This document shows positions 23,309 through 60,018 of a DNA stretch of 64,000 nucleotides, one piece after another. The stretch's first letter is position 1. Each line of letters starts with the position of its first letter. A program made the position numbers and the translations under genes. The stretch comes from Gemmatimonadales bacterium (GTDB lineage: Bacteria > Gemmatimonadota > Gemmatimonadetes > Gemmatimonadales > GWC2-71-9): contig JBBCJC010000002.1 of assembly GCA_037189525.1 (NCBI GenBank), forward strand, positions 224,001 to 288,000, written 5' to 3'. Below the pieces are notes generated by a model. It made no database searches. It was given only the letters and a program-made list of their open reading frames with translations, and was not told the DNA's origin.

Positions 23309-23310
23309 CG

Positions 23311-26292: not shown

Positions 26293-26294
26293 GG

Positions 26295-35054: not shown

Positions 35055-35975
35055 ATGAGCAATCAAGCACAGGGTACGTCGCTGGCGCCTCATCAGCAGG
35101 TCGACCGCCTGGTACGGGATTTGGCGGAAACACCCTATCCAATCCTGATCCTTGGCCCGACGGGTTCCGGGAAGAGTACGCTTGCCAGGTACATTCACTC
35201 GATATCGCCTCGCGCCGTCCACCCATTTGTGGAGTGTGCGGTCACATCGATTCCGGATGAACTCAGGCAGGCGGAACTACTCGGCTCTATGAAAGGGGCC
35301 TATACAGGTGCCTATCACGATCGCGTTGGCTTTGTCGAACAAGCGCACACCGGCACATTGTTTCTCGACGAGCTTGGGCACGCGTCGCTTCGCTTTCAAC
35401 AAACACTCCTTGGCATTCTCGAGACTGGCCTCGTTCGACGAATCGGCAGCAGCTATCAGCGCACAGTTGATGTCCGAATCATCTGCGCGACATCTGTGAA
35501 TTTGGCAGCTCGTTCGCAGGAAGGCCTGTTCCTCGAAGAGCTACTCTATCGGGTGGACTGCCTCACGGTTTCTTTACCATCACTTCGTGAGCGTCGTCAG
35601 GAGATTGTACCACTTGCAACTCGATACTTGCAGGAGGCGTTTGTAGAGCTGGGTCGTGACTTTGTTCCTGTGTTGTCTGATGATGCGGCGGTGATTCTTC
35701 GCAATGCACCGTGGCCCGGAAACATGAGGCAGCTCCGGTCAGTTTGCCAGTACATTGCCAGCAGACTGCGGAGCCCACGTCCTGTTCAACCGACTGATAT
35801 TCCCGAACAGATCCGCGGAATGACAAAAGGGCATCAAACGAAACACGAAGAAGCTCAAGCGTTGTTAGACGCCACACGGGGCAACAAATCCGAGACTGCG
35901 CGCCTGATGGGTATCTCGCGACCGTCGCTCTACAAGCTCCTGGCCGAAGCATCTACGACGGTCCGTAAAGATTGA
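35055..35975 (+). CDS. Sigma54-dependent transcriptional activator (bEBP) lacking an N-terminal sensor domain
   Basis: Walker A GPTGSGKS from about residue 34, GAYTGA loop, LFLDE, WPGNMRQL, C-terminal Fis HTH GNKSETARLMGISRPSLY. Confidence 0.9.
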   Translation: MSNQAQGTSLAPHQQVDRLVRDLAETPYPILILGPTGSGKSTLARYIHSISPRAVHPFVECAVTSIPDELRQAELLGSMKGAYTGAYHDRVGFVEQAHTGTLFLDELGHASLRFQQTLLGILETGLVRRIGSSYQRTVDVRIICATSVNLAARSQEGLFLEELLYRVDCLTVSLPSLRERRQEIVPLATRYLQEAFVELGRDFVPVLSDDAAVILRNAPWPGNMRQLRSVCQYIASRLRSPRPVQPTDIPEQIRGMTKGHQTKHEEAQALLDATRGNKSETARLMGISRPSLYKLLAEASTTVRKD

Positions 35976-35996
35976 CAGCAACTATCCAAACACAAG

Positions 35997-36010
35997 TGTA
36001 AAACTCTACA
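35997..36010. promoter_or_regulatory. Candidate upstream activator sequence (palindrome)
   Basis: TGTA-AAACTC-TACA inverted repeat about 65-80 nt upstream of the -24 element. Confidence 0.35.
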
Positions 36011-36074
36011 ACTCCGGCCCTGCGCCCCCGGCGCTAACGCGTTGTCATACAACAGCGTTGCCGTTTGGTCGTTG

Positions 36075-36091
36075 CTGGCCCACCGCCTGCA
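36075..36091 (+). promoter_or_regulatory. Sigma54 (-24/-12) promoter of the T2SS operon
   Basis: CTGGCCCACCGCCTGCA = TGGC...TGCA with exact GG-N10-GC spacing, ~35 nt upstream of the gspE ATG. Confidence 0.7.
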
Positions 36092-36124
36092 CTACAACAG
36101 GTGAGGCCCGCCTCGAGGCGAACC

Positions 36125-37621
36125 ATGTCCATGCCTACGTTGCGTACACGTCTTGCCCTGCACGACATGTTTCGGCAGGAGTACCTCGCTTACTACAAGG
36201 TACTCCCCCTAGAGGTCGTGGACGGACAGGTTCGCGTGGCGGTATCGGGCGATCCCGAACCGAACGTCCTCGAGGATCTCGGTAAGACGTTCGACGCCGA
36301 AGTCGAGCCGATCCAAACAGATCCGGAGCAGCTGCTCGACGGTATTCGCTCGGCGTTCGCGACTGCGGAATCGGTGTCACATATGTTTGCGGGAAGTCTC
36401 GCGGCTGAAGCCAATGAGGCTGTCCCGCGAATCTCATCAGTTGCGGACGCCCGAGATCAGGCAAACCAGGCCCCGGTCATTCGCTATGTCAACTTGGCGA
36501 TCCGCGACGCGTTCGAGTCGGGTGCAAGTGACATCCATCTCGATACGACACGCGGGGGCCTTAGAGTCCGGCTCCGTATCGATGGCGTGCTCTTCGATTA
36601 CCAACCCCCTCCACCGGGTATACAGATCCCGATCCTGTCACGGATCAAGTTATTGGCCGAACTGGACATCGCAGAACGGCGCGTACCACAAGATGGCCGG
36701 GTCCGGGTGCGGTTGGACAACCAGGAGCTCGACCTTCGTGTTGCTGTTGTTCCCGCGCTTCATGGAGAATCTGTCGTAATACGGCTGTTGGATGGCGGAG
36801 CGGTCAATGTCGATCTCAAGGGTCTTGGTATGGATCCGGAAACGTTCGCTGCCGTTTCCACCCTAACCCAAAAGGCGAATGGCGTTGTGCTCACGACGGG
36901 CCCTACGGGGAGTGGGAAAACGACGACGCTATACGGCATGCTCGGACAACGGCGCGTTGTGGAGGAAAAGCTCATCACGATCGAGGATCCAATCGAGTAC
37001 TACTTGGACGGTGTCACGCAAATACCGATCCGAAATGGAAGCGGGCTCGGATTTGTCGACGTCTTGCGCAGCATCCTGCGCCACGATCCGGATGTAATCA
37101 TGGTCGGTGAAATGCGGGATGCCGCTACGGCTGCCGTTGCGGTCCAGGCAGCCCTGACCGGGCACCTGGTGCTCTCTTCTCTCCACACTAATAACGCGGC
37201 CGCGGCAGTAACTCGTCTGATCGACCTTGGTGTCGACCCGTATATCCTAGCCGCCACGTTGGAGGGCGTCGTCGCCCAAAGGCTGGTGCGACGGATCTGT
37301 CGCCACTGCTCAGCACGCTATTGGCCCGGAGCAGCCACCGTTTCGGTTGCTGCGGGGAGATCGATCGACGGCGTCGCTCTGTACCGTGGAATCGGATGCT
37401 CCGAGTGCCGGAATACTGGCTACCGAGGACGGATCGGAATCTTTGAAGTCCTTGTCTTAGATGAGGCGCTCAAGCGACAGCTCACGAGTGGTCACGAAGT
37501 AGACACCATACGACACGCCGCAGTAGAAGGGGGAATGCGTACCTTACGTCAGGATGCCTGGAATAAGGTGTTGACAGGAGCAACTACAGTCGAGGAGGTC
37601 ATTCGTGTACTCGGGGCTTGA
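36125..37621 (+). CDS. gspE: Type II secretion ATPase GspE/PulE
   Basis: ASDIH, LDIAERRVPQDGR, GPTGSGKTTT, TIEDPIEY, LRHDPDVIMVGEMRD, LHTN, CxxC...CxxC. Confidence 0.95.
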   Translation: MSMPTLRTRLALHDMFRQEYLAYYKVLPLEVVDGQVRVAVSGDPEPNVLEDLGKTFDAEVEPIQTDPEQLLDGIRSAFATAESVSHMFAGSLAAEANEAVPRISSVADARDQANQAPVIRYVNLAIRDAFESGASDIHLDTTRGGLRVRLRIDGVLFDYQPPPPGIQIPILSRIKLLAELDIAERRVPQDGRVRVRLDNQELDLRVAVVPALHGESVVIRLLDGGAVNVDLKGLGMDPETFAAVSTLTQKANGVVLTTGPTGSGKTTTLYGMLGQRRVVEEKLITIEDPIEYYLDGVTQIPIRNGSGLGFVDVLRSILRHDPDVIMVGEMRDAATAAVAVQAALTGHLVLSSLHTNNAAAAVTRLIDLGVDPYILAATLEGVVAQRLVRRICRHCSARYWPGAATVSVAAGRSIDGVALYRGIGCSECRNTGYRGRIGIFEVLVLDEALKRQLTSGHEVDTIRHAAVEGGMRTLRQDAWNKVLTGATTVEEVIRVLGA

Positions 37622-38072
37622 TTCCAATAGGAGTCGCGCATCGCTGTCGAGGCGGGGCTTTACCCTACTCGAGATTATGGTCAGCATCACGATCATCGCC
37701 ATTCTGGCGGGGTTGGTGGTCCCGATGGTCTTTCAGCATGTTGGCGATGCCAAACGGGCAGCTGCGGAAGCCGATATCGAAGCGCTCGGCCTGGCACTCG
37801 ATTCATACGCGCTTGCCGTGGGGCGATATCCAACGACGGATCAGGGTCTCGCGGCACTGGTCACCCGGCCGGAGCCAGTGGCCAGCGGATGGCGCGGCCC
37901 ATATCTGAAGCGCGGTGTTCCGAAAGATCCTTGGGGCAACGACTACCAGTATACGAGCCCGGGGACTGTGAATTCGACCAGCTACGACCTGGTGAGCTAT
38001 GGACGAGACGGGCAAGCCGGTGGCCTCGGCGATGACGCGGATATTCGCTCGTGGGAACGGGCATCCCAATGA
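37605..38072 (+). CDS. gspG: Major pseudopilin GspG
   Basis: Prepilin site G|FTLLE. YPTTDQGLAALV, WRGPYL, PKDPWGNDYQY, SYGRDG. Confidence 0.95.
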   Translation: MYSGLDSNRSRASLSRRGFTLLEIMVSITIIAILAGLVVPMVFQHVGDAKRAAAEADIEALGLALDSYALAVGRYPTTDQGLAALVTRPEPVASGWRGPYLKRGVPKDPWGNDYQYTSPGTVNSTSYDLVSYGRDGQAGGLGDDADIRSWERASQ

Positions 38073-39241
38073 AGCGCTATCGCTACCACGGCGTTTCCAC
38101 GAGCGGCGCGCGGACATCCGGCACCATCGTGGGCAACACATCACAGGAGGTCGATGCCGTCCTCGCCGAGCGCGGCGTGCATACCCTGGCCGTCGTACTG
38201 GATTCACAGAGTCCAAACCGTGTTTCGCGGCAACAACTGGCCATCGTATTCCGGTCAATCGCCACGTTGTCGGGAGCCGGGTGCACGCTTCCACAAGCAA
38301 TTGCGACAACGGAGCATCAGGTGGCAACCAAACGTCTCAAGCCCGGACTGGCCGACACGCTGCGCCTAGTACTCCAGGGAGAGTCGTTGGCCGATGCCTT
38401 GGAGTGCACCCTCTCTCCCCCGCCGAGCGTCATCGGCCTCATTCGGTTTGGTGAATCGAGCGGGCAGCTGGAAATGGCCTTGGCCGAAGCCGCATCGCAG
38501 CTCGAAACGGAGGCATCTGCCGTGGCAAGTATCCGAAAGGCGATGGCTTATCCGGCGGTGTTGGGTGTAGCTGGCAGCGCATCGATGCTCGCAATCGTCT
38601 ATTGGGTGCTGCCCCGTTTCACAGCATTGCTGATCGATTCAGGGCAGCCGTTGCCAGCCGCAACGGGATTCGTACTGGGCGGCGCGGCGTTGTTGCGCAA
38701 ATACGGCTTACTCACCTTTTTCGTCATCCTCCTTTCCGCTGTCGGATTGGTGCAGTGGGTTCGTGCGACGAATCGGATCGAACGCGTTTATGCCGTTTTC
38801 CTCGAGATCCCGCTACTCGGTCCCACCCGATCAACCTGGATCGCGGCACGGTTGAGTAGAGTGCTTGGTACGCAACTCTGCTCCGGCCTACCCCTTCTCA
38901 AGGCGCTCGACATCACGCACGCCGGTATCCGTGACCCTTGTATCGCTGCGAGACTCCGCCAGGCAATCGATGAGATCAGCAAAGGTATCGGCGTTGCGTC
39001 GGCGTTCGGAACAGCGCGCCTCCTGCCCGTGTCGATCCTACCGCTGGTTGCCATCGGCGAGTCGAGCGGAAACCTCGGCACCATGCTGTTACGGAGCAGC
39101 GAGATCTGCTCGAAAGAGGTCGACCAGCGCGTTAGCGTGATGATTGGCATGCTCGAGCCAGGTCTCGTGATCGCCCTGGGTGGAGGTGTGGCGGTGCTGG
39201 CAGCTGCCATGTTGCAAGCGGTCTATGCATTGCGGCCGTAG
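38069..39241 (+). CDS. gspF: Inner-membrane platform protein GspF
   Basis: Two T2SSF repeats (GESSGQL; GESSGNL), AMAYP, MLEP plus TM. ATGA overlap with gspG. Confidence 0.92.
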   Translation: MKRYRYHGVSTSGARTSGTIVGNTSQEVDAVLAERGVHTLAVVLDSQSPNRVSRQQLAIVFRSIATLSGAGCTLPQAIATTEHQVATKRLKPGLADTLRLVLQGESLADALECTLSPPPSVIGLIRFGESSGQLEMALAEAASQLETEASAVASIRKAMAYPAVLGVAGSASMLAIVYWVLPRFTALLIDSGQPLPAATGFVLGGAALLRKYGLLTFFVILLSAVGLVQWVRATNRIERVYAVFLEIPLLGPTRSTWIAARLSRVLGTQLCSGLPLLKALDITHAGIRDPCIAARLRQAIDEISKGIGVASAFGTARLLPVSILPLVAIGESSGNLGTMLLRSSEICSKEVDQRVSVMIGMLEPGLVIALGGGVAVLAAAMLQAVYALRP

Positions 39242-39506
39242 ACCCGACCGTCACAGAGGACAAGGCTTCACGCTCGTCGAGCTTCTCGTTGTCGTTGTGA
39301 TCATCTCAATTGCCGTTGGTGGAGCCGCTATGAGCCTGACTGCCATAACCTCCGAGGCTTCGCCCACGATAACACCGGCCCTATGCCGCTCCGATGCAGT
39401 CAGGCGGCGTCAGGACGTACGTGCAGATTGGAATGGCCAGACGCTTCTCTGTCTCCCGGACGGCCGTGTCATCGGCCTCGGTGCGCGAGAGCTGGAAGGA
39501 GAATGA
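39225..39506 (+). CDS. Short minor pseudopilin (GspH-like)
   Basis: G|FTLVELLVVVVII prepilin motif. 93 aa. Located after gspF. Confidence 0.75.
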   Translation: MHCGRRPDRHRGQGFTLVELLVVVVIISIAVGGAAMSLTAITSEASPTITPALCRSDAVRRRQDVRADWNGQTLLCLPDGRVIGLGARELEGE

Positions 39507-39510
39507 TCTG

Positions 39511-39846
39511 GTGCCGCCGCGAACTAACGCCGGATTCTCACTGTTAGAGGTGTTGATTGCGCTGTCGATCGTGAGTATTGCGGGCCTAGCAGCGATATCC
39601 AAAGTAGGCGCCGCTGGTACCACACTGCGCGAGGTTGCCAGACGCGAAGCAGAAATGGAAGCCGCGCACAACCTGTTGGCAACGGCCATGACCTGGTCCC
39701 GCCGTGAACTCGACCAACGACTCGGCTCGACCCGATCTGGGGCTTTCGTCCTGAGTGTGAGTCGACCTCGATCCGGACTGTACCGCCTGGCCGTTCGCTC
39801 CGACCACGATCTGCTCGTGACAGTCGTCCACGTGGAGGCACCGTAG
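39511..39846 (+). CDS. Minor pseudopilin (GspI-like)
   Basis: G|FSLLEVLIALSIV. GTG start preceded by AAGGAG. Confidence 0.8.
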   Translation: MPPRTNAGFSLLEVLIALSIVSIAGLAAISKVGAAGTTLREVARREAEMEAAHNLLATAMTWSRRELDQRLGSTRSGAFVLSVSRPRSGLYRLAVRSDHDLLVTVVHVEAP

Positions 39847-39852
39847 CTTGTC

Positions 39853-40386
39853 ATGGCCAGCCGCCGGGGATTCACCCTATTGGAGGTACTCGTTGCGCTG
39901 ACCGTCTCCGGTGTGGTGCTGCTGACGGTTCATCAACTGGTCGTTGCAATGACGAGCTACCTGGACGACGTTCGCCGCTCATCCAGGACCCACAGCGCCG
40001 AGATGAACGGCCGCCGCTGGCTCCGATCGGCCTTGGCATCGACTATGTCGCCGACCGATTCATTCCCATTCGCCGGGACGAACGTATCCCTCACCTTTTC
40101 AGCTCGAGTACGGCAAGCAGGTGGCTGGTATGAGCTGGAGCGAATTCTGATTGATCTACAGGGCCGTGACCTCGTCGTGCAACGATCGTTGAGTGGGCGG
40201 CTGGTCCTGGCATCGCAGATCGAATCGATGACAATCGACTATTGGCTCGATGGCGAGTCGAGTCGGCCATGGCTCCGAGGATGGTTGTCATACGGGACCA
40301 TGCCTCACTTCGTCCGGTTCCGACTCAAACGCATCGATCGTTCGACGGTCGACACGTTGGTCTTGATGATTCGAGGCCGCCAATGA
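39853..40386 (+). CDS. Minor pseudopilin (GspJ-like)
   Basis: RRG|FTLLEVLVALTV. C-terminal W.....P..VR motif typical of GspJ. Confidence 0.82.
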   Translation: MASRRGFTLLEVLVALTVSGVVLLTVHQLVVAMTSYLDDVRRSSRTHSAEMNGRRWLRSALASTMSPTDSFPFAGTNVSLTFSARVRQAGGWYELERILIDLQGRDLVVQRSLSGRLVLASQIESMTIDYWLDGESSRPWLRGWLSYGTMPHFVRFRLKRIDRSTVDTLVLMIRGRQ

Positions 40387-41204
40387 ATCGAAACGGATCA
40401 GCCATGCTTGCTGCGCTATGGCTCCTGGCGCTTCTCGCTGCGATTGGGCATTGGGGCTTTCGAGAACTTGAGGACGACATCCGTGCTGCCATGAACCGAA
40501 TCAATCTGACGAAGGCTGCTTGGGCACGTGACGCCTGCCTGGAAATTGCCAAGGGCGACTTTCGCGACCTCTGGGCGTCGACCATGCGCAATGGTACCGA
40601 TGAGCCACGTCAACTGACGATGACACAGCTTCGGCAGCTTGACCAGGACTCGATTGCGCTGGCGGAGGGAGTCTGGTGCCGAATGATTTTCACCGATGTC
40701 AATGCCCGGCTCAATCCCAACATGATCGACTCCTCTACGGTCAATTGCCTCGTGGAAGAGGATGATCTCGTGTCACGCTGGATAAATCATCGCCCTCATG
40801 CATCCGTCGAAGCGCTCGCACAGACCCTTGCACTTGATTCGGCCCGTGTCATCGGGCTTCGTGATGTCGTTTCGGTATACAGTACCGGCTCCCTCAATGT
40901 GAATACGGCATCTGCTCAAGCCCTCGCGTGCGCCATTGGTGTGTCGGAGGCATCCGTAAGGGCAGTAATCCACGCCCGGGAACAGTATCGGGGGTTTGTC
41001 ACGGTAGAAGACGCACTCGCTGCGATCCCGATCGCCGACCGACCCCTGCATACCGCTATCGTCGTTCCACTGACGACATCCGTGATTCGCTTCGTCGTGA
41101 ACGTTTCCGGCACGGCAGGGCAACCCCCTGTCCATGCCACGGCAACGGTCCAAGGCACCACATCGGACCACCGGATGCTCATTTTTCAGAGAGAGGCCGA
41201 ATGA
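40383..41204 (+). CDS. Minor pseudopilin GspK-like
   Basis: RNG|SAMLAALWLLALL (no E5, as in GspK). D.NARLNPN and LNVNTAS motifs. ATGA overlap. Confidence 0.8.
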   Translation: MNRNGSAMLAALWLLALLAAIGHWGFRELEDDIRAAMNRINLTKAAWARDACLEIAKGDFRDLWASTMRNGTDEPRQLTMTQLRQLDQDSIALAEGVWCRMIFTDVNARLNPNMIDSSTVNCLVEEDDLVSRWINHRPHASVEALAQTLALDSARVIGLRDVVSVYSTGSLNVNTASAQALACAIGVSEASVRAVIHAREQYRGFVTVEDALAAIPIADRPLHTAIVVPLTTSVIRFVVNVSGTAGQPPVHATATVQGTTSDHRMLIFQREAE

Positions 41205-42100
41205 AAGGCCCCATCCGCCTGCGAATCGCCTCCGCTCCGACTCCCGGCAGCGCAATCGATGATCTCCTTCAGTCAGTGGGGTCGGCGCCACGACGTGTGG
41301 TCGTGGTACTTGGCGATGCGTTGGTACAGCGCCGCCGCCTCACCGATCTGCCGCCGGCACGTCGATCGACTACCCGGCGGCTGGCTCAACGACACAGCAC
41401 ACGGTACTTCCGCATTCGAGATGGGGGCGTCCTTGTCGATCTCGTGCCGGAGATGCCGTCAGGTCGGGAAAAGGCGTGGCTGGCCGCCGCCGCCCCAGGC
41501 GAACTCGTCGATTCGCTCCTGGCAGCGGCCACTCGCCTCGGCTACTTCATCGAGGATGTCATACCGGATACCAGAGCAGGGTGGTCCGGCCTCAGCTTCC
41601 TTCCCGCCTCCGAGCAGTGGAGGCGACTGAAGCAGCATTGGAAGAACACGGCACATATCGCTCTTGGGGTGTTGTTGATCGTCGCGATGGCGTGGACCGC
41701 TTCATTTGTAATGCGGTGGCGCATCGTTCGGCAGTTGGACTCCGGATTAGCGAGTGTCGATAGTGTGGTGGCTGCCGTAAGCGAAGCCCGTGCAGCGTAC
41801 GGCATGCTGCACGAGTTGACGACAACGATGCAGCAAGCCCAAGGCGACCGCAACAAGCTCAGTGCCCTGATGACGGCTGTTGTCCGCGCGCTCCCCGATT
41901 CTGTGGTTTTAACCACAATGTCTCTCGATCTCTCGGGGACTGGTCGGCTCGCCGGGTTTGCTGAAGAGGCGCTCGCCGTCAACGCCGCACTTCACCAGGT
42001 GCCCGGTCTCGTGAACCTTCAGCTAGAGGGCGTACCAGTCGTAGACGCAACCGGTGGGCGCAGCTGGATGCGTTTTGCCCTTCGCTCGGTACAACCGTGA
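41201..42100 (+). CDS. GspL/PilN-like assembly protein
   Basis: Cytoplasmic region, single TM, coiled coil, then ALPDSVVLTTM...LAGFA (PilN-like). Confidence 0.7.
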   Translation: MKGPIRLRIASAPTPGSAIDDLLQSVGSAPRRVVVVLGDALVQRRRLTDLPPARRSTTRRLAQRHSTRYFRIRDGGVLVDLVPEMPSGREKAWLAAAAPGELVDSLLAAATRLGYFIEDVIPDTRAGWSGLSFLPASEQWRRLKQHWKNTAHIALGVLLIVAMAWTASFVMRWRIVRQLDSGLASVDSVVAAVSEARAAYGMLHELTTTMQQAQGDRNKLSALMTAVVRALPDSVVLTTMSLDLSGTGRLAGFAEEALAVNAALHQVPGLVNLQLEGVPVVDATGGRSWMRFALRSVQP

Positions 42101-42654
42101 CTCCGATTCGTCTTCACAGTCGTGTCGCTGGCCTCCTCGGTTTGGGCGTAGTTCTCGTGCTCGGCACCCGCGGAGTGTCCCACGCCGAGCGGACCTTGCA
42201 GACGCGCCGAGAGGTTGCCGAACTGCGAATTGCTCGCCAGCACCTTGCACTTCGTACGCTGAGCGAGATCGAAGCAGGTCGGGGTCGGACGGATTCACTC
42301 GTCCAGGCGTTTCAGGAGGCTGTCATACCAGCTGCAGAGTGGGAGTCTGGCGCTGCAGAGCTGGGAACTCTCGTACGGGAAGCATTGATGCGATTCGGTG
42401 CTGTGATCGAGTCTATATCTCCGGTGCCTCGGGACACGACATTAGGGTCTGTTGTGAAGCCTGTATCAATCCGTGTGGTATTTCAATCGGAATTGCAGGG
42501 CGTGGTCGACCTGTTCGCTTATGTCAACCGCGCTCGGACAATACTCGTTCCTCGATCGATTCAGATTGTGTCGACCGACGCATTTGCAGAATCGAGTGTA
42601 CCCGAGGTGCTCAAGGTTGAGCTTGTTATCACCGGATGGTACATCAACCGATGA
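42097..42654 (+). CDS. GspM/PilO-like assembly protein
   Basis: N-terminal TM, coiled coil, ferredoxin-like C-terminus (VSIRVVFQSELQGVVDLF). GTGA overlap. Confidence 0.65.
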   Translation: MTPIRLHSRVAGLLGLGVVLVLGTRGVSHAERTLQTRREVAELRIARQHLALRTLSEIEAGRGRTDSLVQAFQEAVIPAAEWESGAAELGTLVREALMRFGAVIESISPVPRDTTLGSVVKPVSIRVVFQSELQGVVDLFAYVNRARTILVPRSIQIVSTDAFAESSVPEVLKVELVITGWYINR

Positions 42655-43145
42655 GAACGCTGATGATACTCTCCTACGTTGTGAGAGGATGTTTGATCCT
42701 TGGCTGCATCGTATCGATTGTCAAGGTTGCGACGCTAGGCCGGGATGTGCGGACCGCATCCGCGACGGCCCACAATGCAGATGCCATGTCTGACAGCCCT
42801 ACCCCAGGCGCGGACAGTCTTTCGCTGGTCATCGTGAGTCAGCGAGCACCATTTCGCGTCAACCGGTTCGTACCAGCCACTGTGCCGCCGGTCGGTACCC
42901 CAAGCCAAGCTAGCCAGACTGATGATGTGGCTGCAGCACGTATAACCGGCTTTGTGATGGGCCCCCGGGTCATGGCAGTCATCGAGGGCATTCCTGGCAT
43001 TTCCCCATCTGTGGCCGTCCGCGCGGGCGACAAGGTCGGTAACTGGTTAGTTCGCGGCATCTCGAAGAGCGGGGTCGTGCTCGAACGATCCGGACGGGTC
43101 GTTCGACTGACGCTGCCCGAGCTTACACGGGGGAAAGGCCAATGA
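42651..43145 (+). CDS. Single-TM hypothetical protein in GspC/PilP position
   Basis: TM, Pro-rich linker, then ITGFVMG..AVIEG...VRAGDKVG.W.VRGI (GspC HR/PilP-like). Coupled to gspD. Confidence 0.55.
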   Translation: MRTLMILSYVVRGCLILGCIVSIVKVATLGRDVRTASATAHNADAMSDSPTPGADSLSLVIVSQRAPFRVNRFVPATVPPVGTPSQASQTDDVAAARITGFVMGPRVMAVIEGIPGISPSVAVRAGDKVGNWLVRGISKSGVVLERSGRVVRLTLPELTRGKGQ

Positions 43146-44590: not shown

Positions 44591-44614
44591 ACGCCACGTC
44601 TGGAACGGATCATC

Positions 44615-46499: not shown

Positions 46500-46589
46500 G
46501 TCGCTCCCGCATGAAGTCGAGGCTAATTAGGATAGGACGCCCGGCACGTTTCATGGCCACAGGATAATGAAAGCGTTTCGCGCGTTGGG

Positions 46590-47125
46590 TTCGCTTCGGT
46601 TCACGATGGCGCGATGACGAGCACTCGCCGCAGCACTGTTGCTGTTCCGACTGAGTGGTCCCTGTACGCCGTACGTCGTTTAGAGAGCCGCCGCACATCC
46701 GACTGGCGAGGTCAACAATGTTGTTGATGAAGGCACCAAACTGCTTGGTAGTCCGAACCCCGAGAGACCCCAAAATCCCCTCGCTCCAAGACATGTTGAC
46801 GAATGGGTGCCCAACCGCGATACGTCCGAGCTTACGTGATCCGACGATCGTTCCAATGTGGTCGCGGCCAAGCCGATGCGGCTGATCTCTCGCCGGTCAG
46901 CAGGTCGTGGCCTAGCAACGCACCCACGATGTCTATAGGGTCCCCAGCAACCGGAATGAATCCAAAGCCGATCGCAGACGCATCGAACACGGTCGCCCAC
47001 TGATGACCTCGGGACACATCCCAAAACGGGGCAGAGAAGTTGGCGGGGTTCCGTTGACGAAGGCGTAGAGGTTGAGCCCGCCGGCGGCGAGGCCGATTGG
47101 GCATTTCTGCGTGAACCACCTGAGG
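46590..47125 (-). pseudogene. Decayed orphan RHS C-terminal toxin module
   Basis: FTQKCPIGLAAGGLNLYAF...NPANFSAPF mirrors the intact RHS core end FTQEDPIGLAGGLNLYGF...DPVNFSDPFG. Other frames continue with GFIPVAGDPIDI..GHDLLTGE (pre-toxin-TG-like), GHPF/HVLERGDF/LGVRTTKQF and RRTAYRDHSVGT. Multiple frameshifts. Confidence 0.75.
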
Positions 47126-47192
47126 CTAGACCGCCCGACCGATCTTATTACGAGAGAGTCCAAGCCTATGGGCCAGGACTCTCTCGCACCCT

Positions 47193-47543
47193 TCACCATA
47201 CGGCAAGCGGCTTATTCTCACCGGAAAGGAAGTGCGCCCACTCCCCACCACGCTGGTCATTCGGCCCCAAGGGAATGACCAACCGATCCCCGGAACTGAA
47301 GTCGACCTCAATAGCTGCTGCACCAGCCACGGCGCGTGCTACGCGACTTCCGATCAGTTCGCAGAGCGCGTCGCGGGACCCCCCTGCCGGGAACCTGATT
47401 TCGCGAGCGCCTCGTCGAATGAGCGGGTGTGCGATACACCGGAGGATCCGCCCGTGAAAATGGATCTCTACGTAGTCCATCACGAAGCTCACAGCGCTTA
47501 CCTCTTCCCCCAGCAGCTCGTCCAGCGGGTTCTTCTCAGTCAT
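47193..47543 (-). CDS. Probable cognate immunity protein of the RHS toxin
   Basis: 116-aa ORF with a GGAGG RBS starting 28 nt after the RHS stop. Confidence 0.7.
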   Translation of the reverse strand: MTEKNPLDELLGEEVSAVSFVMDYVEIHFHGRILRCIAHPLIRRGAREIRFPAGGSRDALCELIGSRVARAVAGAAAIEVDFSSGDRLVIPLGPNDQRGGEWAHFLSGENKPLAVW

Positions 47544-47571
47544 TCCCCCCTCCCAGCAATTGCCCGTTTCG

Positions 47572-50500
47572 TCATGGAAGGTAGATGTGAGCTGTGGGGT
47601 CGTCTGGCCGAAGTGTCCGCCCAGTCGTGGGACTGACAGTCTGACCGCTCTTATTCATGTAGATCACACGACGCCGATGATGAGCCGTCTCATCCATGAC
47701 CCTCACTCCTGTAACGCGAGCATCCATGCCCTTTCCTCCCTGCCCACCTAAGAACTGGACTCCCGGCGCCCGAGTAGCATGAGGACCTGTCGCGCCAGTG
47801 GGAACGGGAATTGAGGTCCCTTTTGACGTGACGAGGAAGTCTACTGCCCGTTCACCTCCGCGAGCCACATCTGCAACGTCATCAGCCGCTCCGAGGGCTC
47901 TGCGTAGGACGCCCACTGATGGTACGCCGGGTAGGGCACCTGCAACGTCTAGCGCCGCATCAATTGCCGTACCGACCGACGGGGCCGCGATGAACTTCGC
48001 GACACTGACCACCGCCATCCCGACATCAAGGCAGTTCGAAGGCGGGATGGGACAGAGCCCGAAGGGGTCGCTGAAGTTAACTGGATCGCCAGCAGCGAAG
48101 CCGTAGAGATTCAGCCCACCGGCCAGCCCGATCGGATCTTCCTGGGTAAACCGCCCCGTCCGCGCATCATAGTACCGATTCCGCCGGTAGTCCAATCCCC
48201 CCGCCCCGTCGCGCTTGCCCTCGAGCAGCGACCCGTGCCATGCGTACCGGGTTTGATTCCCATGCTGCTGGTCGTACGCCGTGCGAGACCCAAACCACGA
48301 AATGATATAGCACCGATTCGCCCCCGTCCCCAGCGCGACACAGGGGAGCGCCCCGTTATACGCTGTATCTACGACACCACTCCCGAACGCTCCCAGCGGC
48401 GCCGTCCCCTGAGCATTCCAGAACGGCACGATCGTCTTGGTGCCCGTCCATGTCACCGGGGTAGCGACCGGCGTGTCCGTGTAATTAAAACGGATGACAC
48501 TGAGCGGCGCATCGATGATCGGGCCCGGCGTGTACAACACCTGCCCATAGAATCGATTGGGATCCGGCACTCCCGGCGTATTGCTATGCGTCACGCTGTA
48601 AGGCCCCGAGTCCTGTTCCCACTGCGCACTGGCAGCAGCCGTCCCCGGCGCCTGGATCTCTGCCAACTCCTGCGTCCCATCCCACACGGTCCGCCGGATA
48701 AAATCCGAGTAGCATTCCGGCTGAACCGAGTTCACACACGGACTCTGCATCCAAGTCCAGACGCGGCGCCCTAAGGCATCATACCGATACTCCTCGTTGT
48801 AATGCTCGACCCACGGCGTGAAGCTCGCCGGCGTCACCCAGGTATCGAGCGCCACCAACCGGTTGTCGAGCCCATAGATCGACACCCGCTCGCGGTCAGT
48901 CCCGGAAAAGTAGGACGTTTCGCGATCGTAGTCAGTGTTCCCTGCGGCATCGTACGTGTACACTGAGGCACCCGATTGCGTCCCGGACTTCGTAATGCCC
49001 GTTAACCGCCCTGTGCTGGCCTGGTACGCATAGGCTTTGTTCGCAGTGAAGTAGACGACTGAGGCGCCCGCCTTCGTCGAGTCGAAGCGACTGCTGGTGT
49101 AGAGGTTCCCCATTGGGTCGTGCGCGAGCGTCTCAGCCGACCCGAACTCGGTCGTGCTTCCGAACGGATTGCGCCACGTACTCCGCGTCCCGAGCGTCGC
49201 CACAGCCCCCAGGCCGCCGTACGTCGCCTGCGTTCGGTTGTTATAAAACGCCCCATCGCCCGAGCGCAGCAGTTTGCTCCTGGCGTCGTACCGCATCGTG
49301 TCGATGTTGCGAATCGGGTTGTGCGGCCAGCGACCCCCCGTCGTCCCGCCATCATTGTTGATACGATCCCGAACCAGCCGGCCATCGGCATCCCAGCTCA
49401 TGCGGCGCGTGTAGGACCCGGGGTAGACGATCGTACTGTCTTCGCCGCGGACGGTCTGCTGGAAGGAAAAGACTGCGCCGGAGGCATCCCGGACCTGGAC
49501 GAGATCGCCCGTAACCGCGTGGTAGGCGTACTTGATCGAATCCCCCGCCGCCGTCGCGAAGATCGACGGGGCACGCACGCGGCGCCGCCGCCCATTCCGG
49601 TCGTAGCTGTACTGAATCGTGTAGCTATGCCCGCTGAAGGTCGTGTCCACCCGGGCAATTTGTTGGGTCTCGGTCTCGAGCAGGCCGTGCGGATAGTACG
49701 TCCGCGTCACGCGGGCATACCGATTGTTGGCTGTGGCGAGCTGGCCATCTGGCGCATAGCTATAGGTCTGACTATCCCGCGGGACCACGTACGGATACGG
49801 GAAGCCGGCGGAAGCCCCTCCATGTTTCGCCAGATAGAGCCAGGTCGGCTGCGCGCGGCTCACGGAGGGGATGACGCGGATGACGACCCGGTTGAGCGCA
49901 TCGTATGTCGAGGTGATCACCGGTCCGGAGGGGAACCGGCGTCCGACCTGGACGGTGGGGTTCCCCGCGTGATCGACGACGACACTGTCGATGCCGCCAT
50001 CGGGCGCCTGCTCCGCAATCTGCCGCCCGGCCTGGTCGTAGCGCCACTGCGTAGTGAGCGTATTGATCCCGTTCGGATTTGGCCTCATCCACCGCATGGT
50101 CGACAAACGCTGACTATTGTTGTTGTAGGTATGCCGGACAAAGGTCGACTCCTGCGGTGCGCCCCCGCCGAACGCGGTCACGAGACTCGTGTCGTCCGTG
50201 ATCCGGTCGAGCAGGTCATAGGTCAATCGCTGCTCGACTTTCTGGTTCTGCGCGGTGTCGATCGGTGAGATGGTTTTGATCAGGCGGCCAATCACGTCGT
50301 TGGTATAGGTCGTGACGTATTGCTTCGGGGTCTTGACCGTCTCGGTGTTTCCCCTCGCATCATAGGTATACGTGTAGGTGGCCGTCTGTCCGTTGACCTT
50401 CGGCAGAACGATCGTCAGCAATCGCTTCGACGTCGCATGGTAGGTGAAGTTGACGCGGCGCGAGGTATCCGACGCGGGCGTCCCGGACTGCTGCCAGAGC

Positions 50501-52185
50501 CGCTTCCCATCAGTCGCGTCGAGCTGGAACACCGTCGTATCTTTCTCGGGCCGAATGATCATCGCCAGCTGATCGAACTTCGTGTTCCAGACGTACCGCG
50601 TCGTATCCCGCACGCCCGGGGTACTGGTGACGGAGTCGATGACGTGCGTCGGGTTCCCGACCCCCAAGTCGTACACGAGGTGCTGCACACGGCCCGTCGG
50701 CGTCTGAATCCGCACCGGTGACCATCCGCAGGTCTGGGGCCACGGCGGCACACACATCTTATGTTGCACGCGCGTCGTATTCCCGTACGCATCGGTCAGC
50801 TTCCGGGCTGGGCCAAAGCGCGACTGCATGATGACCGTCGTATCGCCCACGTCGGTACGGGGTCCGTTGATGAACGTCGTCACGTCGCTGGTATCGACCG
50901 CCGTCGGAGCGCGCCCGCGACTTTCGGAGGCGATCAGACTCACGACGATATCGTTGGTGGGATTGCTCATCTTGATACGAGAGGAGATCAGCCGCTTCCC
51001 AGTGTCATACCCAAAGGTGTCCACGACTGCCATTCGATCGGTGCGCTTCGCCATGAGATTCGAGTCGGCCGCACCAGTCCGATATGCAAAATTGACGGCG
51101 GCCGCCCCGGGGTTGGTGATTGCGGTGACCAAGCCACCAGGATTCGTCACGGTCGTGACCCGCGACGTGCCACCTATCGGCGGGGCAATGACCGACGTGA
51201 GCCGATTCGACGGGTGAAGAAACGTGTACTGCTGCCCAGCCGGTGGGAGCGTAATGATGAGCGAACCGGCGCTGTGCGTGAAGGTCGTGGTATGGCCGAA
51301 CCGATTGACCGTTTCCACATGCTGTCCATTGGCATCGAACTGAATCCGGACGCCTTCCGCGCCGACACGGGTCCATGGCTTCAATGGTGTCCCGGGATTG
51401 TAGATGAGGGTGTCGACGCGAGCGTACGCCGAAGTAGTCCACCGATTGGTCGCGTTGGGCAAGAACTGCCGAGCGCTGCCATCCCCATCGACCCAAACGA
51501 TAACCTGGTGTGCCGGGTTCGGCGCCAGCAGTTGCTCGAGGCCGGCCAGCCACCATCCGGCTCCGAACCGACTGTTCTTCCGGTTGACGATCGGCATAAT
51601 TCCCGTGACCGGAGGCCCGGCGATCGGGACGCCCCCATAGATATTGGCGACCTCGTACTTGTAGTTGTAGAACCCGGTAGTGTCGTTGAAGGCGTTATAG
51701 ACGAACGCCAGTCGCCGTATTGAACCGGGGGTCCACTGATTCCCCGGCCACCGCTGCGTTTGTGCCGGCTGGTCGACCCCATTGATGACGAGCCAGAACC
51801 TGACCTGGACACTGTCGGGAATCGTCGTCGTGATCGATTGCAACACCCGGATCGCGATGATCGGATAGGGATGGGCAAACTCGCTGTTGTATAAGAGCGT
51901 CGGCGTGCGCTGCGTATCAAAGGTCCGCGTGCTGGGCAGCTGATGCACGATCCGGAGGTTCCCGCATTCGGCTGCCGCCGATGGCCCGACCGCGATTGTC
52001 AGACAGGCGCTACGTTCGACCGGATAGCCCGAGTTGTCGATATCCACCCCGGCCGCAGGTGCTTGCTGCGTGGCCATGATACGGTTGATGGTACGCGCGA
52101 GCCACGACGGCGTATCGCGCGAGAGGGTGCTGATCGGCAGGATGGCCACGGCCATCATCGCGGGCAGAAAGGCACGAACACGCAT
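47572..52185 (-). CDS. RHS/YD-repeat polymorphic toxin with N-terminal signal peptide
   Basis: Many YD repeats (YDARGN, YDLLDR, YDQAGR, YDALNR, YDALGRR). Core end RNRYYDARTGRFTQEDPIGLAGGLNLYGF..DPVNFSDPFGL. C-terminal extension of ~160 aa. N-terminus MRVRAFLPAMMAVAILPI. Confidence 0.93.
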   Translation of the reverse strand: MRVRAFLPAMMAVAILPISTLSRDTPSWLARTINRIMATQQAPAAGVDIDNSGYPVERSACLTIAVGPSAAAECGNLRIVHQLPSTRTFDTQRTPTLLYNSEFAHPYPIIAIRVLQSITTTIPDSVQVRFWLVINGVDQPAQTQRWPGNQWTPGSIRRLAFVYNAFNDTTGFYNYKYEVANIYGGVPIAGPPVTGIMPIVNRKNSRFGAGWWLAGLEQLLAPNPAHQVIVWVDGDGSARQFLPNATNRWTTSAYARVDTLIYNPGTPLKPWTRVGAEGVRIQFDANGQHVETVNRFGHTTTFTHSAGSLIITLPPAGQQYTFLHPSNRLTSVIAPPIGGTSRVTTVTNPGGLVTAITNPGAAAVNFAYRTGAADSNLMAKRTDRMAVVDTFGYDTGKRLISSRIKMSNPTNDIVVSLIASESRGRAPTAVDTSDVTTFINGPRTDVGDTTVIMQSRFGPARKLTDAYGNTTRVQHKMCVPPWPQTCGWSPVRIQTPTGRVQHLVYDLGVGNPTHVIDSVTSTPGVRDTTRYVWNTKFDQLAMIIRPEKDTTVFQLDATDGKRLWQQSGTPASDTSRRVNFTYHATSKRLLTIVLPKVNGQTATYTYTYDARGNTETVKTPKQYVTTYTNDVIGRLIKTISPIDTAQNQKVEQRLTYDLLDRITDDTSLVTAFGGGAPQESTFVRHTYNNNSQRLSTMRWMRPNPNGINTLTTQWRYDQAGRQIAEQAPDGGIDSVVVDHAGNPTVQVGRRFPSGPVITSTYDALNRVVIRVIPSVSRAQPTWLYLAKHGGASAGFPYPYVVPRDSQTYSYAPDGQLATANNRYARVTRTYYPHGLLETETQQIARVDTTFSGHSYTIQYSYDRNGRRRRVRAPSIFATAAGDSIKYAYHAVTGDLVQVRDASGAVFSFQQTVRGEDSTIVYPGSYTRRMSWDADGRLVRDRINNDGGTTGGRWPHNPIRNIDTMRYDARSKLLRSGDGAFYNNRTQATYGGLGAVATLGTRSTWRNPFGSTTEFGSAETLAHDPMGNLYTSSRFDSTKAGASVVYFTANKAYAYQASTGRLTGITKSGTQSGASVYTYDAAGNTDYDRETSYFSGTDRERVSIYGLDNRLVALDTWVTPASFTPWVEHYNEEYRYDALGRRVWTWMQSPCVNSVQPECYSDFIRRTVWDGTQELAEIQAPGTAAASAQWEQDSGPYSVTHSNTPGVPDPNRFYGQVLYTPGPIIDAPLSVIRFNYTDTPVATPVTWTGTKTIVPFWNAQGTAPLGAFGSGVVDTAYNGALPCVALGTGANRCYIISWFGSRTAYDQQHGNQTRYAWHGSLLEGKRDGAGGLDYRRNRYYDARTGRFTQEDPIGLAGGLNLYGFAAGDPVNFSDPFGLCPIPPSNCLDVGMAVVSVAKFIAAPSVGTAIDAALDVAGALPGVPSVGVLRRALGAADDVADVARGGERAVDFLVTSKGTSIPVPTGATGPHATRAPGVQFLGGQGGKGMDARVTGVRVMDETAHHRRRVIYMNKSGQTVSPTTGRTLRPDDPTAHIYLP

Positions 52186-52569
52186 GCGCGCTCCAAGAAA
52201 CGGGTCGATCCCGTGCAGAGCATGCGCTGCGCCATGATCCCGGTCACCGTAACAGCTGCAATGATATGGATTTAGAAATTATCCTCGATCCTACCCGCAA
52301 CCGGGATCGAACCACGCCCGAACGCTGCCGAACGCCCAAGGACGCGCCGGGCAGGAATTCACATCAATCGCTTGATTAGTATTAGGAGCCGAAAGAGGAT
52401 GCTGGCGTCGAGAAGGGCAGGCGAGAAATTCTGCCGGGCACAAGGCACGGCTTTCCTGTTCAATCCTGGTTAATCCAAGGTTCTTCCGAAGGACCCGCGC
52501 GCCGAAATATGTCGCCCTGCTTTCCAGAAGAAACCGATCTTGTCATTCCCACCTTGCGGCAAGATCGGA

Positions 52570-52590
52570 GGCACACGTGGCCCGTGTGCC
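52570..52590. terminator. Hairpin downstream of the S8 peptidase
   Basis: GGCACACG-TGGCC-CGTGTGCC, 18 nt beyond the stop at 52608. Confidence 0.35.
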
Positions 52591-52607
52591 CCCGTTGAAC
52601 CCCGCTA

Positions 52608-54320
52608 TCAACAGATCGGAAACCCACCAATGAGCATCATATCAGTCGCCGTCCTGCCCACGGACGTTACGGTGACCCTCAAGCGGAACTGATCCGTGGG
52701 GGAAGCCATTTCCTGATAAACATTTGAGTTGGAGCCTACAGGCTGCCAAACATTACTACAATCCAGTCGCTCCCACGCATAGGAGTTGTTAAATCCGTTC
52801 GTCGACATCGCAGTCCAGGTATCGAGCCCACCCGTTGGAGTACTGGGCCCAACGATCCAAGTGGCGAGTTTACCGTAGACGGCCTGCGGTGCATCGACCC
52901 GACCATAACCATAGTACGCATCATGGCCGGCCGCACCCCTGTCGATGGCATTCGAGGTCAACCGAGACCGTACCTGAGCCGCCGTCAGCGTCGGATGCTT
53001 CGTCCAAACTAGCGCCGCAACACCGGCGACAACAGGTGCCGACAGGGATGTTCCACACGAGCTCCCATGGGATCCATTGTCCACCATGTTGGTTGCCCAG
53101 AATGGGGCGGCCAGTTCAGCCTCATTACCATAAGTCGAATAAGTCGAACCGTAGGGGCATTTTCCGGAAAATGCAAAACTGTCGCTTGGGGTCGTTCCAG
53201 TCACCGCAATGACTTGGGCGTGTCGGGCGGGATACGTAATTGTATTCGCCGTGTTATTGCCGGCACCTGCGACGAGAAGGTGCCCAGCGTTAGACGCCCC
53301 AATCACGGCTTGATGCCTCCACCAATCGTTGACAGGGTCGCCGAAACTCATATTGATGATCTCGCGTGATCCGCCGTTGTTCTCAAGCCAGTTGAGCGCT
53401 GCGATTTGGGAGCCAACGGGACAATTAGATTTTGAGATCCCATAATCGAAATAACAGATACGAATGGAACGAAAGTGCTTTGGCTTCGGGCTAATGCCAA
53501 CATACCCGAAGCTGTTCATTCGGGCGGAAGCAACCCCGGCAACACGACTGCCATGCACCAGATCCCACGGCTGATAGCAGCGTTCGACAAGTCCGGCGAT
53601 GTATATGTACGAACACGCAGATGATGCGTGTCCAGGTCCATCATAGGACCATACGTCGTAGTGCACCGAATCGATCCCGCTATCAATCACGGTCACAATG
53701 GCACTGTCCCCATAGTTGCCCTCGGCTGCCCAAACATGATGCGCTCCGACCTTCTGAAGGCCCCAATCCTGGGCCTCGGAGAACATTACCGCGGCCGCTC
53801 CAGCGCCAGCACTCGAAAGCTCGCTGCTCCCGGCAGCTCCGATCTCGTCAACGATGTCGAGCTTTCGAAGGACCGGAGCCATCTGAGGATCGATGGTTGC
53901 TTGAAAGAAAGGAAGGCTTCGATAGGTCCGTACAACCTGAACGCCAAGGCGCTCGAGCTCTGCTCGCCCCTCCTGATAGGTTGTCTTCGTGATAGCCGGC
54001 GTATAGCCCATCTCCCGCGTTCGGCGATCACCTGGCGCTTTGAGAGCAATAAAAGCGCTACCCCGAGTGACCGCGATCGCCGCAACGAGTTCCTCGTCCG
54101 ACAGCTCAGGCGGGAGGCCTTCCGTGACAGGGATACTGCGGATGTAGTCCAATGGTTCGGGAAACGTCGGAATGGCGCCTGGCGGGTCGACGTGTGTCAC
54201 ACGACCCTCGATCCGTGGTTGTGCACCAGGTCCCTGTGGTTCTGCCAGATCATCGACTGTGCAGCTCGCCGCCAATAGTGCCAGCCCAGCCAGGATCAGT
54301 CGTCCCTGTTGCCGTCGCAT
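52608..54320 (-). CDS. Subtilisin-like S8 serine peptidase, lipoprotein
   Basis: Lipobox LALLAAS-C. Triad VIDSG / HGSRVAG / GTSLSAP. Oxyanion GAGN. YYGYGRVDA. Confidence 0.92.
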   Translation of the reverse strand: MRRQQGRLILAGLALLAASCTVDDLAEPQGPGAQPRIEGRVTHVDPPGAIPTFPEPLDYIRSIPVTEGLPPELSDEELVAAIAVTRGSAFIALKAPGDRRTREMGYTPAITKTTYQEGRAELERLGVQVVRTYRSLPFFQATIDPQMAPVLRKLDIVDEIGAAGSSELSSAGAGAAAVMFSEAQDWGLQKVGAHHVWAAEGNYGDSAIVTVIDSGIDSVHYDVWSYDGPGHASSACSYIYIAGLVERCYQPWDLVHGSRVAGVASARMNSFGYVGISPKPKHFRSIRICYFDYGISKSNCPVGSQIAALNWLENNGGSREIINMSFGDPVNDWWRHQAVIGASNAGHLLVAGAGNNTANTITYPARHAQVIAVTGTTPSDSFAFSGKCPYGSTYSTYGNEAELAAPFWATNMVDNGSHGSSCGTSLSAPVVAGVAALVWTKHPTLTAAQVRSRLTSNAIDRGAAGHDAYYGYGRVDAPQAVYGKLATWIVGPSTPTGGLDTWTAMSTNGFNNSYAWERLDCSNVWQPVGSNSNVYQEMASPTDQFRLRVTVTSVGRTATDMMLIGGFPIC

Positions 54321-54408
54321 AGCTCCTCCTCACGCAGACTGTGGATAGGTCGTATGAAGCGGAGCGCGACCTCGGCACGTCCGCTGGTGAGCAGCATGAC
54401 CGAGCGCC

Positions 54409-54849
54409 CTATTTCCGGAGTGCCTTGGTTCGGACACCATCACGGATACCGGTAGCGCCCATTCCTGCAAGGTCCGCAGATGCGCACGACCCCGATGTCG
54501 GCTGGGTCATCGTATACATCCATATTCTCGAGACGCCATTGTCTGTCATCATCGGATCAGGAAATGGACCGCAGTCGACCTCCGTCCCGCGGCTCATCGT
54601 GGTCAAGCGCACATCGGTGAAGTACGGCACGACCGTCGTAGCACTCGACCGAAGGACGGCTTGAACGGATGCGGTGGACTGATCCACCACGATCATCCAT
54701 TCGATGACATCGGCAGGCGGACCAGACGTAGACTGCAGGATGGGAGTATGGGATGGCATGGGGAGTTGCGATCGAGGAGTGCCCTGAAGAAGGAAGAGCT
54801 GCCCGATGCCCAACGCGCCCATTGCCGCAACGATGAGGGGTGTACGCAT
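54409..54849 (-). CDS. Small exported hypothetical protein
   Basis: ATG 54849 gives MRTPLIVAAMGALGIGQLFLL (signal-like). Two Cys. Upstream of the S8 gene. Confidence 0.55.
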   Translation of the reverse strand: MRTPLIVAAMGALGIGQLFLLQGTPRSQLPMPSHTPILQSTSGPPADVIEWMIVVDQSTASVQAVLRSSATTVVPYFTDVRLTTMSRGTEVDCGPFPDPMMTDNGVSRIWMYTMTQPTSGSCASADLAGMGATGIRDGVRTKALRK

Positions 54850-60006: not shown

Positions 60007-60018
60007 CGAATCTCCACG

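Follow-up and report, generated by a model that had tools for sequence, protein, structure and literature searches.

The window analysed here is a stretch of 64,000 nucleotides from a Gemmatimonadales bacterium (contig JBBCJC010000002.1 of assembly GCA_037189525.1). It carries a type II secretion system (T2SS) gene cluster convergent on a gene for an Rhs polymorphic toxin and its predicted immunity gene. Open reading frames (ORFs), translations and family scans bear out the gene content and order given in the original prediction, gspE-G-F-H-I-J-K-L-M-(C)-D facing an RHS toxin/immunity array. They also identify the genes flanking the gsp cluster, which that prediction had left unnamed, as two sensor-less sigma-54 activators, or bacterial enhancer-binding proteins (bEBPs), that bracket it. 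The locus is composed of the following genes.

35055..35975, + strand: bEBP1, sigma-54 enhancer-binding protein (PF00158 at 1e-47, HTH_8; Walker A at residue 33)
36125..37621, + strand: gspE, secretion ATPase (PF00437 at 1e-119; longest ORF starts at 36065)
37605..38072, + strand: gspG, major pseudopilin (TIGR01710 above cutoff; sole PF08334 match in the genome)
38069..39241, + strand: gspF, platform protein (PF00482)
39225..39506, + strand: gspH-like minor pseudopilin, short (N-methyl motif; TIGR01708 sub-cutoff)
39511..39846, + strand: gspI-like minor pseudopilin (N-methyl motif; TIGR01707 sub-cutoff)
39853..40386, + strand: gspJ-like minor pseudopilin (N-methyl motif)
40383..41204, + strand: gspK (PF03934 at 4e-8)
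41201..42100, + strand: gspL-like (assigned by position and related-locus homologues; sole profile match PilN, E 0.02)
42097..42654, + strand: gspM-like (NF040576 at 7e-12, below cutoff)
42636..43145, + strand: gspC-like, short (position; homologues of 29-46% identity directly before gspD in related loci; no family match)
43142..44590, + strand: gspD, secretin of reduced length (secretin core preceded by an N0-like and a single N domain; C-terminal tail very short)
44615..45670, + strand: bEBP2, second sensor-less sigma-54 activator (PF00158 at 6e-52)
47193..47543, - strand: imm1, predicted cognate immunity protein of 116 residues (26 homologues), directly downstream of the Rhs gene
47572..52185, - strand: Rhs polymorphic toxin, 1537 residues (PF05593, TIGR03696 core motif)

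The eleven gsp genes span 36125-44590 on the + strand, closely coupled and with all frames open. Pfam families match GspE, G, F, K and D. The naming of H, I and J rests on gene order and weak matches, all three being N-methyl pilins, while for GspL and GspC, without a family match at E 0.01, the assignment follows from position and from homologues found at the same place in related loci. GspE has intact ATPase motifs and scores higher against TIGR02533 (528 bits) than against PilB (478 bits), both below cutoff; GspD has TIGR02517 as its best NCBIfam match, and its ten best Protein Data Bank (PDB) matches are all T2SS GspD. The host genome (G000, 98% complete) has no other gspG. A single PF01478 prepilin peptidase gene lies elsewhere in the genome and none inside the cluster. 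The genome's one further secretin, remote in sequence (27%) and with pilin-like genes around it, is therefore probably PilQ.

The Rhs protein is built of a signal-like N-terminus, a family-specific N-domain, a YD shell, a DPxG autoprotease motif (seen in the sequence, its spacer 19 residues long instead of 18) and a C-terminal tip that starts at residue 1378 (nucleotide 48054 downward). The signal-peptide-like N-terminus claimed earlier passes a crude heuristic on its basic n-region and hydrophobic h-region, with an ambiguous cleavage site of its own. The same rule accepts 87 of 120 Rhs homologues, against 398 of 1110 long ORFs of the genome and 6 of 36 P-loop proteins, and many of the homologues that fail look, by inspection, like mis-called starts. 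Full-length Rhs genes in the fetched loci described below mostly encode a hydrophobic leader, often ending in AxA-Q. As also claimed, the protein has no PAAR or VgrG region: neither Pfam nor NCBIfam families of these types match it, no adjacent vgrG or eag match was found, and a PAAR-like pattern occurs in just one of the 120 homologues. A lipobox pattern is equally rare (1/120). Long Ig-like N-terminal extensions are present in many homologues and absent from the window's Rhs. Neither the Rhs N-region nor GspD has a close relative among the plasmids searched, so that no cultured host emerged, and a metagenome scan with a single protein as query found nothing. The type IX secretion marker PF11751 has no match in the genome, in a search whose controls gave no match either.

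The C-terminal tips of the homologues are highly diverse, with 112 tips falling into 85 families. The window's tip recurs in 510 representatives and frequently terminates proteins of 1.2-2.9 thousand residues, with PT-HINT in 4 of 63 aligned members. It has no convincing Pfam family, only a weak 17-residue 2C_adapt match, and its profile has no PDB sequence match. A fold computed from the single sequence was discarded as unusable at a predicted local distance difference test (pLDDT) score of 46; the predicted fold used here scores 91.6. Its best match in two fold searches is PT7(Bc), with Z 6.2 and a root-mean-square deviation of 3.2 over 71 aligned positions (next match, Z 3.6); Foldseek gives a probability of 0.94 and E 0.3, identity is 14-18% and the catalytic residues are unmatched. 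The tip is thus predicted, from a moderate fold match, to be a PT7-like DNase. Imm1, which like the second candidate immunity protein Imm2 has no Pfam family match, is predicted to bind it: the modelled tip-Imm1 complex scores 0.84 against 0.01 for the best control, above a mark reached by 116 of 157 solved pairs and 2 of 215 mismatched pairs, with a run agreement of at least 95% and a partner pLDDT of 92. The modelled interface includes conserved tip residues 60, 80 and 98 (numbering of the modelled tip). At another locus, a T2SS-linked Rhs (L034:4970-11047) ends in a phage-type lysozyme tip (PF00959), a toxin acting in the periplasm.

The original prediction proposed, as a check set beforehand, that neighbouring T2SS and Rhs genes be counted across genomes. 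We surveyed 151 genomes of the order, which gave 56 strong gspG loci after 11 weak matches were dropped, and fetched up to 20 kb around the 55 gspG loci of other genomes. The loci were sorted by gene order with their Rhs neighbours already visible, and then checked on trees. In a quick GspE tree, the 28 rows of the window's type, the window included, form one side of a branch with an SH-aLRT (Shimodaira-Hasegawa-like approximate likelihood-ratio test) support of 99; the same group, with 30 rows including the window, has a support of 99 in a FastTree phylogeny of GspD. We refer to this lineage as clade A. The 27 gspG loci outside it comprise 10 of class B, 4 of class C, 12 orphan or unclassified ones, and L015, which has the E-G-F order and is counted as non-A because it falls outside clade A on the tree. 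Rhs presence was called from N-domain matches (62 strong of 66) together with the core matches listed, 55 of 205 not being among them. An Rhs gene lies within 20 kb of 20 of the 29 clade-A gspG loci and of none of the 27 others (0.6 expected), so that co-occurrence goes far beyond chance and is specific to one T2SS lineage, although kin are not independent and P values therefore overstate it. Seven of the nine clade-A loci without Rhs are on contigs of at most 18 kb, and one of these seven, in G037, has a gspE fragment beside Rhs at another contig end. At the level of genomes, the Rhs N-domain occurs in 21 of 25 with clade A and 15 of 126 others. Three genomes (G043, G013, G050) have two gspG loci each, and Rhs stands only beside the clade-A one.

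Two further samples extend this association. In a phylum sample of 251 genomes, which overlaps the first 151, G239, G206 and G249, all outside the building of the Rhs profile, have the full layout with Rhs on both sides, and G185 has a clade-A T2SS with eight distant Rhs genes. A set anchored on Rhs instead, drawn from the best 80 of 195 and the best 80 of 117 confirmed matches, comprises 159 loci; among those with at least 3 kb upstream, gsp genes are found in 37 of 42 metagenome and 21 of 52 GTDB loci, and after clustering at 70% identity in 33 of 59 clusters. Of the GTDB loci, 76 of 79 are labelled as Gemmatimonadota and the others as Acidobacteria, Thermoleophilaceae and 'uncultured bacterium'. 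A record labelled Acidobacteria (L110) agrees with L109 of Gemmatimonadetes both in layout and in match identity and is possibly mis-binned. In the usual layout Rhs is divergent from gspE, or gspD, bEBP2 and Rhs follow each other in the same orientation, or both; the convergent layout of the window is unusual. The link itself persists over divergent, co-oriented, both-sides and convergent layouts.

Loci outside clade A yielded separate observations. Two class-B loci, in G200 and G210, have a different YD protein directly upstream of gspG (L089:15100-17493 and L092:3-5540), that of L092 being teneurin-like with an FN-plug, NHL and a YD shell; these pairs may represent an independent second origin of T2SS-YD pairing. 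Loci L005, L010-L014 and L024-L027 have strong gspG matches with no other gsp gene detected nearby, and come mostly from one genus, often with a type VI secretion system (T6SS). The statement in the original prediction that T6SS genes are missing is right for the window proteins scanned; the genome, however, has a T6SS-iii-like cluster about 470 kb away (L263, C2:749-767 kb) with TssB, TssC (PF17541), VgrG, TssG, DUF4123 and vWA. A conclusion that the whole genome lacks T6SS, drawn from a blank PF05943 search, was withdrawn on this account. Sheath genes of the L263 type occur in 4 of the 151 genomes of the order, and T6SS sheath genes altogether in about 22 (18 + 4, from two sheath searches).

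A regulatory link between the two parts of the locus, also absent from the original prediction, comes from the activators and from their likely target sites. Both activators have PF00158 and variant sigma-54 contact loops. BEBP1, the only one with an HTH_8 match, consists of AAA+ and HTH domains without a sensory domain, has a Tyr variant of the loop, and has an 80% copy at C2:338.5-339.4 kb of the same genome. In most relatives bEBP2 lies between gspD and a co-oriented Rhs gene. Across loci the contact loops vary and the N-terminal domain is mostly absent. Both activators belong to the T2SS-Rhs module, and rpoN is present in the window's genome. Two candidate sites lie in the window.

52220..52234, - strand: sigma-54 (-24/-12) consensus-like site, beginning 49 nt before the Rhs start
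36076..36090, + strand: weak sigma-54 (-24/-12)-like site, best site by position weight matrix (PWM; 5.8 bits), about 50 nt before the likely gspE start

The strict -24/-12 pattern is found upstream of 20 of 126 Rhs genes and 26 of 1054 control genes, and 13 of the 20 Rhs sites lie 46-58 nt before the start, as the window's does. Before gspE the strict pattern alone is not enriched (2/29), and the enrichment there comes from the PWM only, which was built from the strict sites upstream of Rhs genes. At 10 bits or more it marks 28 of 48 gspE genes of the Rhs-linked (clade-A) type, 0 of 23 other gspE and 5 of 473 controls; the 48 include some near-duplicates and metagenome rows unplaced on the tree, and many of the 23 are internal to operons. 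With the threshold at 8 bits, it finds a site before none of the 22 other gspG scored, and before 14 Rhs genes out of a partly overlapping set of 38. The T2SS lineage and the Rhs genes thus share a predicted sigma-54-type promoter motif, whose function as a promoter we infer.

The recurrent adjacency and the shared predicted promoter type make this T2SS lineage the likely outer-membrane exit route of the Rhs proteins. We consider it probable, on genomic grounds, that a Gemmatimonadota T2SS lineage genetically tied to a signal-peptide Rhs family exports Rhs across the outer membrane. A possible sequence of events can be proposed. First, the two sensor-less activators, acting through sigma-54, would induce transcription of the Rhs genes together with that of the gsp operon. 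Second, Sec would carry Rhs to the periplasm, where the YD shell would close around the self-cleaved tip, the predicted PT7-like DNase. Third, the pseudopilus, whose maturation would depend on the prepilin peptidase from outside the cluster, would push Rhs through the short secretin, a passage that would need a wide gate opening or a shell that is not fully closed. Released or held at the surface, Rhs would then kill neighbouring bacteria, while cytoplasmic Imm1 would cover the conserved face of the tip. Stand-alone Rhs genes of the same family may use the T2SS in trans where one is present, and elsewhere be relics or take another route. A wider claim, which we advance tentatively and would not yet back, is that a dedicated sigma-54-controlled T2SS subtype serves as the exporter of the whole Sec-exported Rhs family in Gemmatimonadota, passing a YD cocoon that is loaded with toxin and exceeds the known GspD gate in width, and so forming a new class of polymorphic-toxin delivery. 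The outer-membrane route put forward in the original prediction accordingly gains from the co-occurrence and the shared motif, while its passage of a folded cage looks tight against published gate sizes.

Several observations weigh against export by this T2SS. The family is often found without the system: among the 36 genomes with the window's Rhs family 15 have no clade-A gspG, some of them fragmented or with remnants, and a clade-A gspG lies within 20 kb of only 25 of 62 Rhs N-domain matches. The clearest case is G137 (3 contigs, 97% complete), which has three full-length signal-bearing Rhs genes, no gspG, no GspD and one secretin only, at 31% identity to the window's GspD; it also has 34 Rhs core matches in long orphan arrays (L064-L069, L083), with one full-length Rhs behind a bEBP2-like gene. 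Full-length Rhs genes stand solo in G062, G012, G109 and G134, and the Longimicrobium copies are mostly solo. A second secretin in G134 was rejected as part of a working T2SS, being a 229-codon fragment beside an insertion sequence, and in L075 (G091:C43) a partly deleted clade-A T2SS (bEBP2, gspD, gspM) lies between two Rhs genes. Conversely, the clade-A loci of G140 and G084 are on long contigs and truly lack Rhs, and the association may have arisen once, so that the counts are not independent events. The short secretin, once considered an Rhs-specific trait, was dropped as such: class B shares its N0-plus-one-N layout, a short N-region common to that lineage speaks against an Rhs-specific adaptation, and the shorter C-terminal tail of GspD is the sole secretin trait typical of clade A. 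At the window itself, GspD falls in clade A of its tree and GspE in clade A of its own, the latter on a long end branch (1.14), and the site before gspE is weak where many relatives have strong ones. Lastly, the RhsA cocoon measures 86 x 65 Å in the available part of PMC8765631, and the available part of PMC9251779 gives open GspD gates of 53 and 48 Å, with wider expansion merely hypothesised. Judged by analogy with RhsA, the folded Rhs cocoon (65 Å) exceeds the published GspD gate (~50 Å).

Full-length, signal-bearing Rhs in genomes without GspD and the mismatch of cocoon and gate are what one would expect if the locus were a co-regulated conflict island, whose parts share a sigma-54 regulon and travel together while the T2SS secretes other proteins and Rhs leaves through the type IVa pilus secretin, in vesicles or by lysis. 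A second activator frame in the host genome also suits this explanation. At C2:326641-339585 (L264) both activators recur (80-84%) with the T2SS reduced to a gspD tail, along with the leader and broken 5' end of a small gene, and where the S8 lipoprotein gene and Rhs stand in the window it holds lasso-peptide-like genes (B2, cyclase, FkbH domain, isopeptidase-like, ADOP permease). A duplicate frame without T2SS and with lasso genes indicates that the frame can carry other cargo, a further point against dedicated export. Against a mere island, only Rhs and the activators, among the window genes queried, recur beside the clade-A T2SS, the link survives many rearrangements, and the activity of the Rhs-family bacteriocin Bcn-A requires xpsD according to the accessible part of PMC7259588. 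We therefore rate the island explanation as unlikely, though it is the strongest of the rivals.

The gate, smaller than a closed cocoon, and the short secretin could also be accommodated if the T2SS were a display or contact device, exposing Rhs at the cell surface or on the end of an extended pseudopilus, with nothing but the toxin tip or an incomplete shell reaching the target cell. The long Ig-like N-terminal extensions would suit adhesion, but the window's Rhs lacks one and a lipobox pattern matches only one of the 120 homologues, and we regard this as decidedly improbable. That the family link is real and the window's inverted copy a decaying, no longer functional relic would fit the convergent layout, the long GspE branch, the weak gspE site, a broken orphan cassette and the sister copy with its T2SS deleted, yet it is very hard to credit when the reading frames of all 11 gsp genes, the two activators, Rhs and imm1 are open, the ATPase motifs are intact and a good sigma-54 site precedes Rhs.

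The remaining features of the island are as follows.

45855..46430, - strand: imm2, candidate orphan immunity gene, after the orphan tip; no family match
46631..47115, - strand: decayed orphan Rhs-CT cassette, frameshifted (tblastn 41-45%, two frames, to PT-TG and tip of homologue P0002)
52608..54320, - strand: S8 subtilisin-like lipoprotein (PF00082; lipobox and D/H/S motifs read in the sequence)
54409..54849, - strand: small exported protein; its homologues lie upstream of Rhs in the nearest relatives of the window's Rhs (L104, L105, L183, L184)
54653..55017, - strand: 5' part of the small gene with its leader, where the duplicated frame has its right edge (71% DNA identity to C2:326641-326998)

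At the DNA level imm2 matches (74%) a remnant that follows the genome's second Rhs gene (41%), which stands solo with a small downstream gene directly after tig-clpP (L002, C5:1055014-1060400); a solo Rhs of G109 (L073) is likewise near tig and clpX. The block has the lower GC content described in the original prediction (0.58-0.61, against 0.67 on the left flank). The S8 lipoprotein, which that prediction had drawn into the system, was removed from it as a passenger: it is present in none of the 159 Rhs-anchored loci, and a 42% paralogue stands alone elsewhere in the genome (C2:190264-191988) in a separate low-GC islet that includes a single gene downstream of it. The small exported protein, found in 4 of the 159 loci, all close relatives of the window's Rhs, is by this distribution a putative accessory of that Rhs subfamily. 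At the left edge of the island, 33832-34264 is a decayed 67% copy of C2:691473-691906. Further out, 55757-62460 encodes a Cys/His-rich protein of 706 residues, an SNF2 helicase with weak DISARM DrmD-like matches, a DEDD exonuclease-BRCT protein and a low-GC GGDEF gene, possibly a defence block, and 16926-32310 holds five large co-oriented ORFs (617-1573 residues) with matches only to DUF6603 and PhoD-like families.

Among known systems, the T6SS Rhs effectors RhsA (PMC8765631) and Tse5 (PMC10684867) have, in the parts of these sources available, the same YD shell, DPxG autoprotease motif and C-terminal tip. The sequence match of the window's Rhs to them is limited to 50 residues at the core end, and unlike them it is without PAAR or VgrG and has a signal-like N-terminus and a family-specific N-domain. 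WapA of Firmicutes is exported by Sec, from a monoderm host with no outer membrane to cross, unlike the window's organism. It is likewise a signal-peptide YD-repeat toxin with an immunity protein, in the available parts of PMC7259588 and PMC12704120. The nearest precedent is Bcn-A of Xanthomonas perforans, described in the same accessible part of PMC7259588 as an Rhs-family antibacterial protein with a downstream immunity gene, like that of the window, whose supernatant activity is lost in a mutant of the T2SS secretin gene xpsD. Bcn-A is described there as having no signal sequence and needing ORF2 and ORF4, whereas the window's Rhs has its own signal-like N-terminus; xps is a host system and not a T2SS of the toxin locus, with a possibly indirect effect, whereas here the T2SS lineage is adjacent and shares predicted promoters.

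Signal peptide, RHS repeats, variable C-terminal toxin and immunity gene are also the traits of the 'T2SS/Sec-dependent' toxins of Zhang et al. 2012 (PMC3482391). In the part of that paper available, any toxin with a signal peptide is labelled 'T2SS' by default, monoderms included, and Table 1 gives no neighbourhood signature genes; the accessible part of PMC10684867 repeats this label, citing Zhang. The locus described here differs in that an actual gsp cluster provides such a signature. The best fold match of the tip belongs to PT7(Bc)-PIM7 (PDB 8owu; 10.1101/2021.10.19.465003), given in the available part as a polymorphic DNase toxin with an immunity protein that shields its active site, although the two share just the 14-18% identity noted above and no sequence-profile match. 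HrpR/HrpS of Pseudomonas syringae (PMC3105312, available part) are likewise two activators without regulatory domains, with variant sigma-54 contact loops and tied to a secretion system; those of the window differ in being non-adjacent and in loop variants that change between loci. The PhoP-regulated T2SS of Serratia marcescens (PMC13729183, available part) acts in interbacterial competition, as proposed here, under a different regulator, and the word Rhs does not occur in PMC13729183. Our literature search, whose scope excluded most subscription journals and the supplements of PMC3482391 (which may list Gemmatimonas loci), found no T2SS-Rhs locus in Gemmatimonadota, no linked T2SS-Rhs-activator module and no report of Gemmatimonadota Rhs export. 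The remark in the original prediction that such a route was not known to have been demonstrated is in line with this search as regards a locus of this kind, and is tempered by the loss of Bcn-A activity in the xpsD mutant.

Diderm Rhs toxins with a signal peptide have so far been assigned to 'T2SS' by default, no locus having identified the route they take through the outer membrane; the one described here supplies a concrete, recurrent gene set. If Rhs export by this lineage is true, the T2SS would be extended to a dedicated exporter of antibacterial toxins, and the size limit of secretins would be probed by a 65 Å cage. It would also describe a main weapon of competition in a little-studied phylum, where T6SS sheath genes turned up in only about 22 of 151 genomes.

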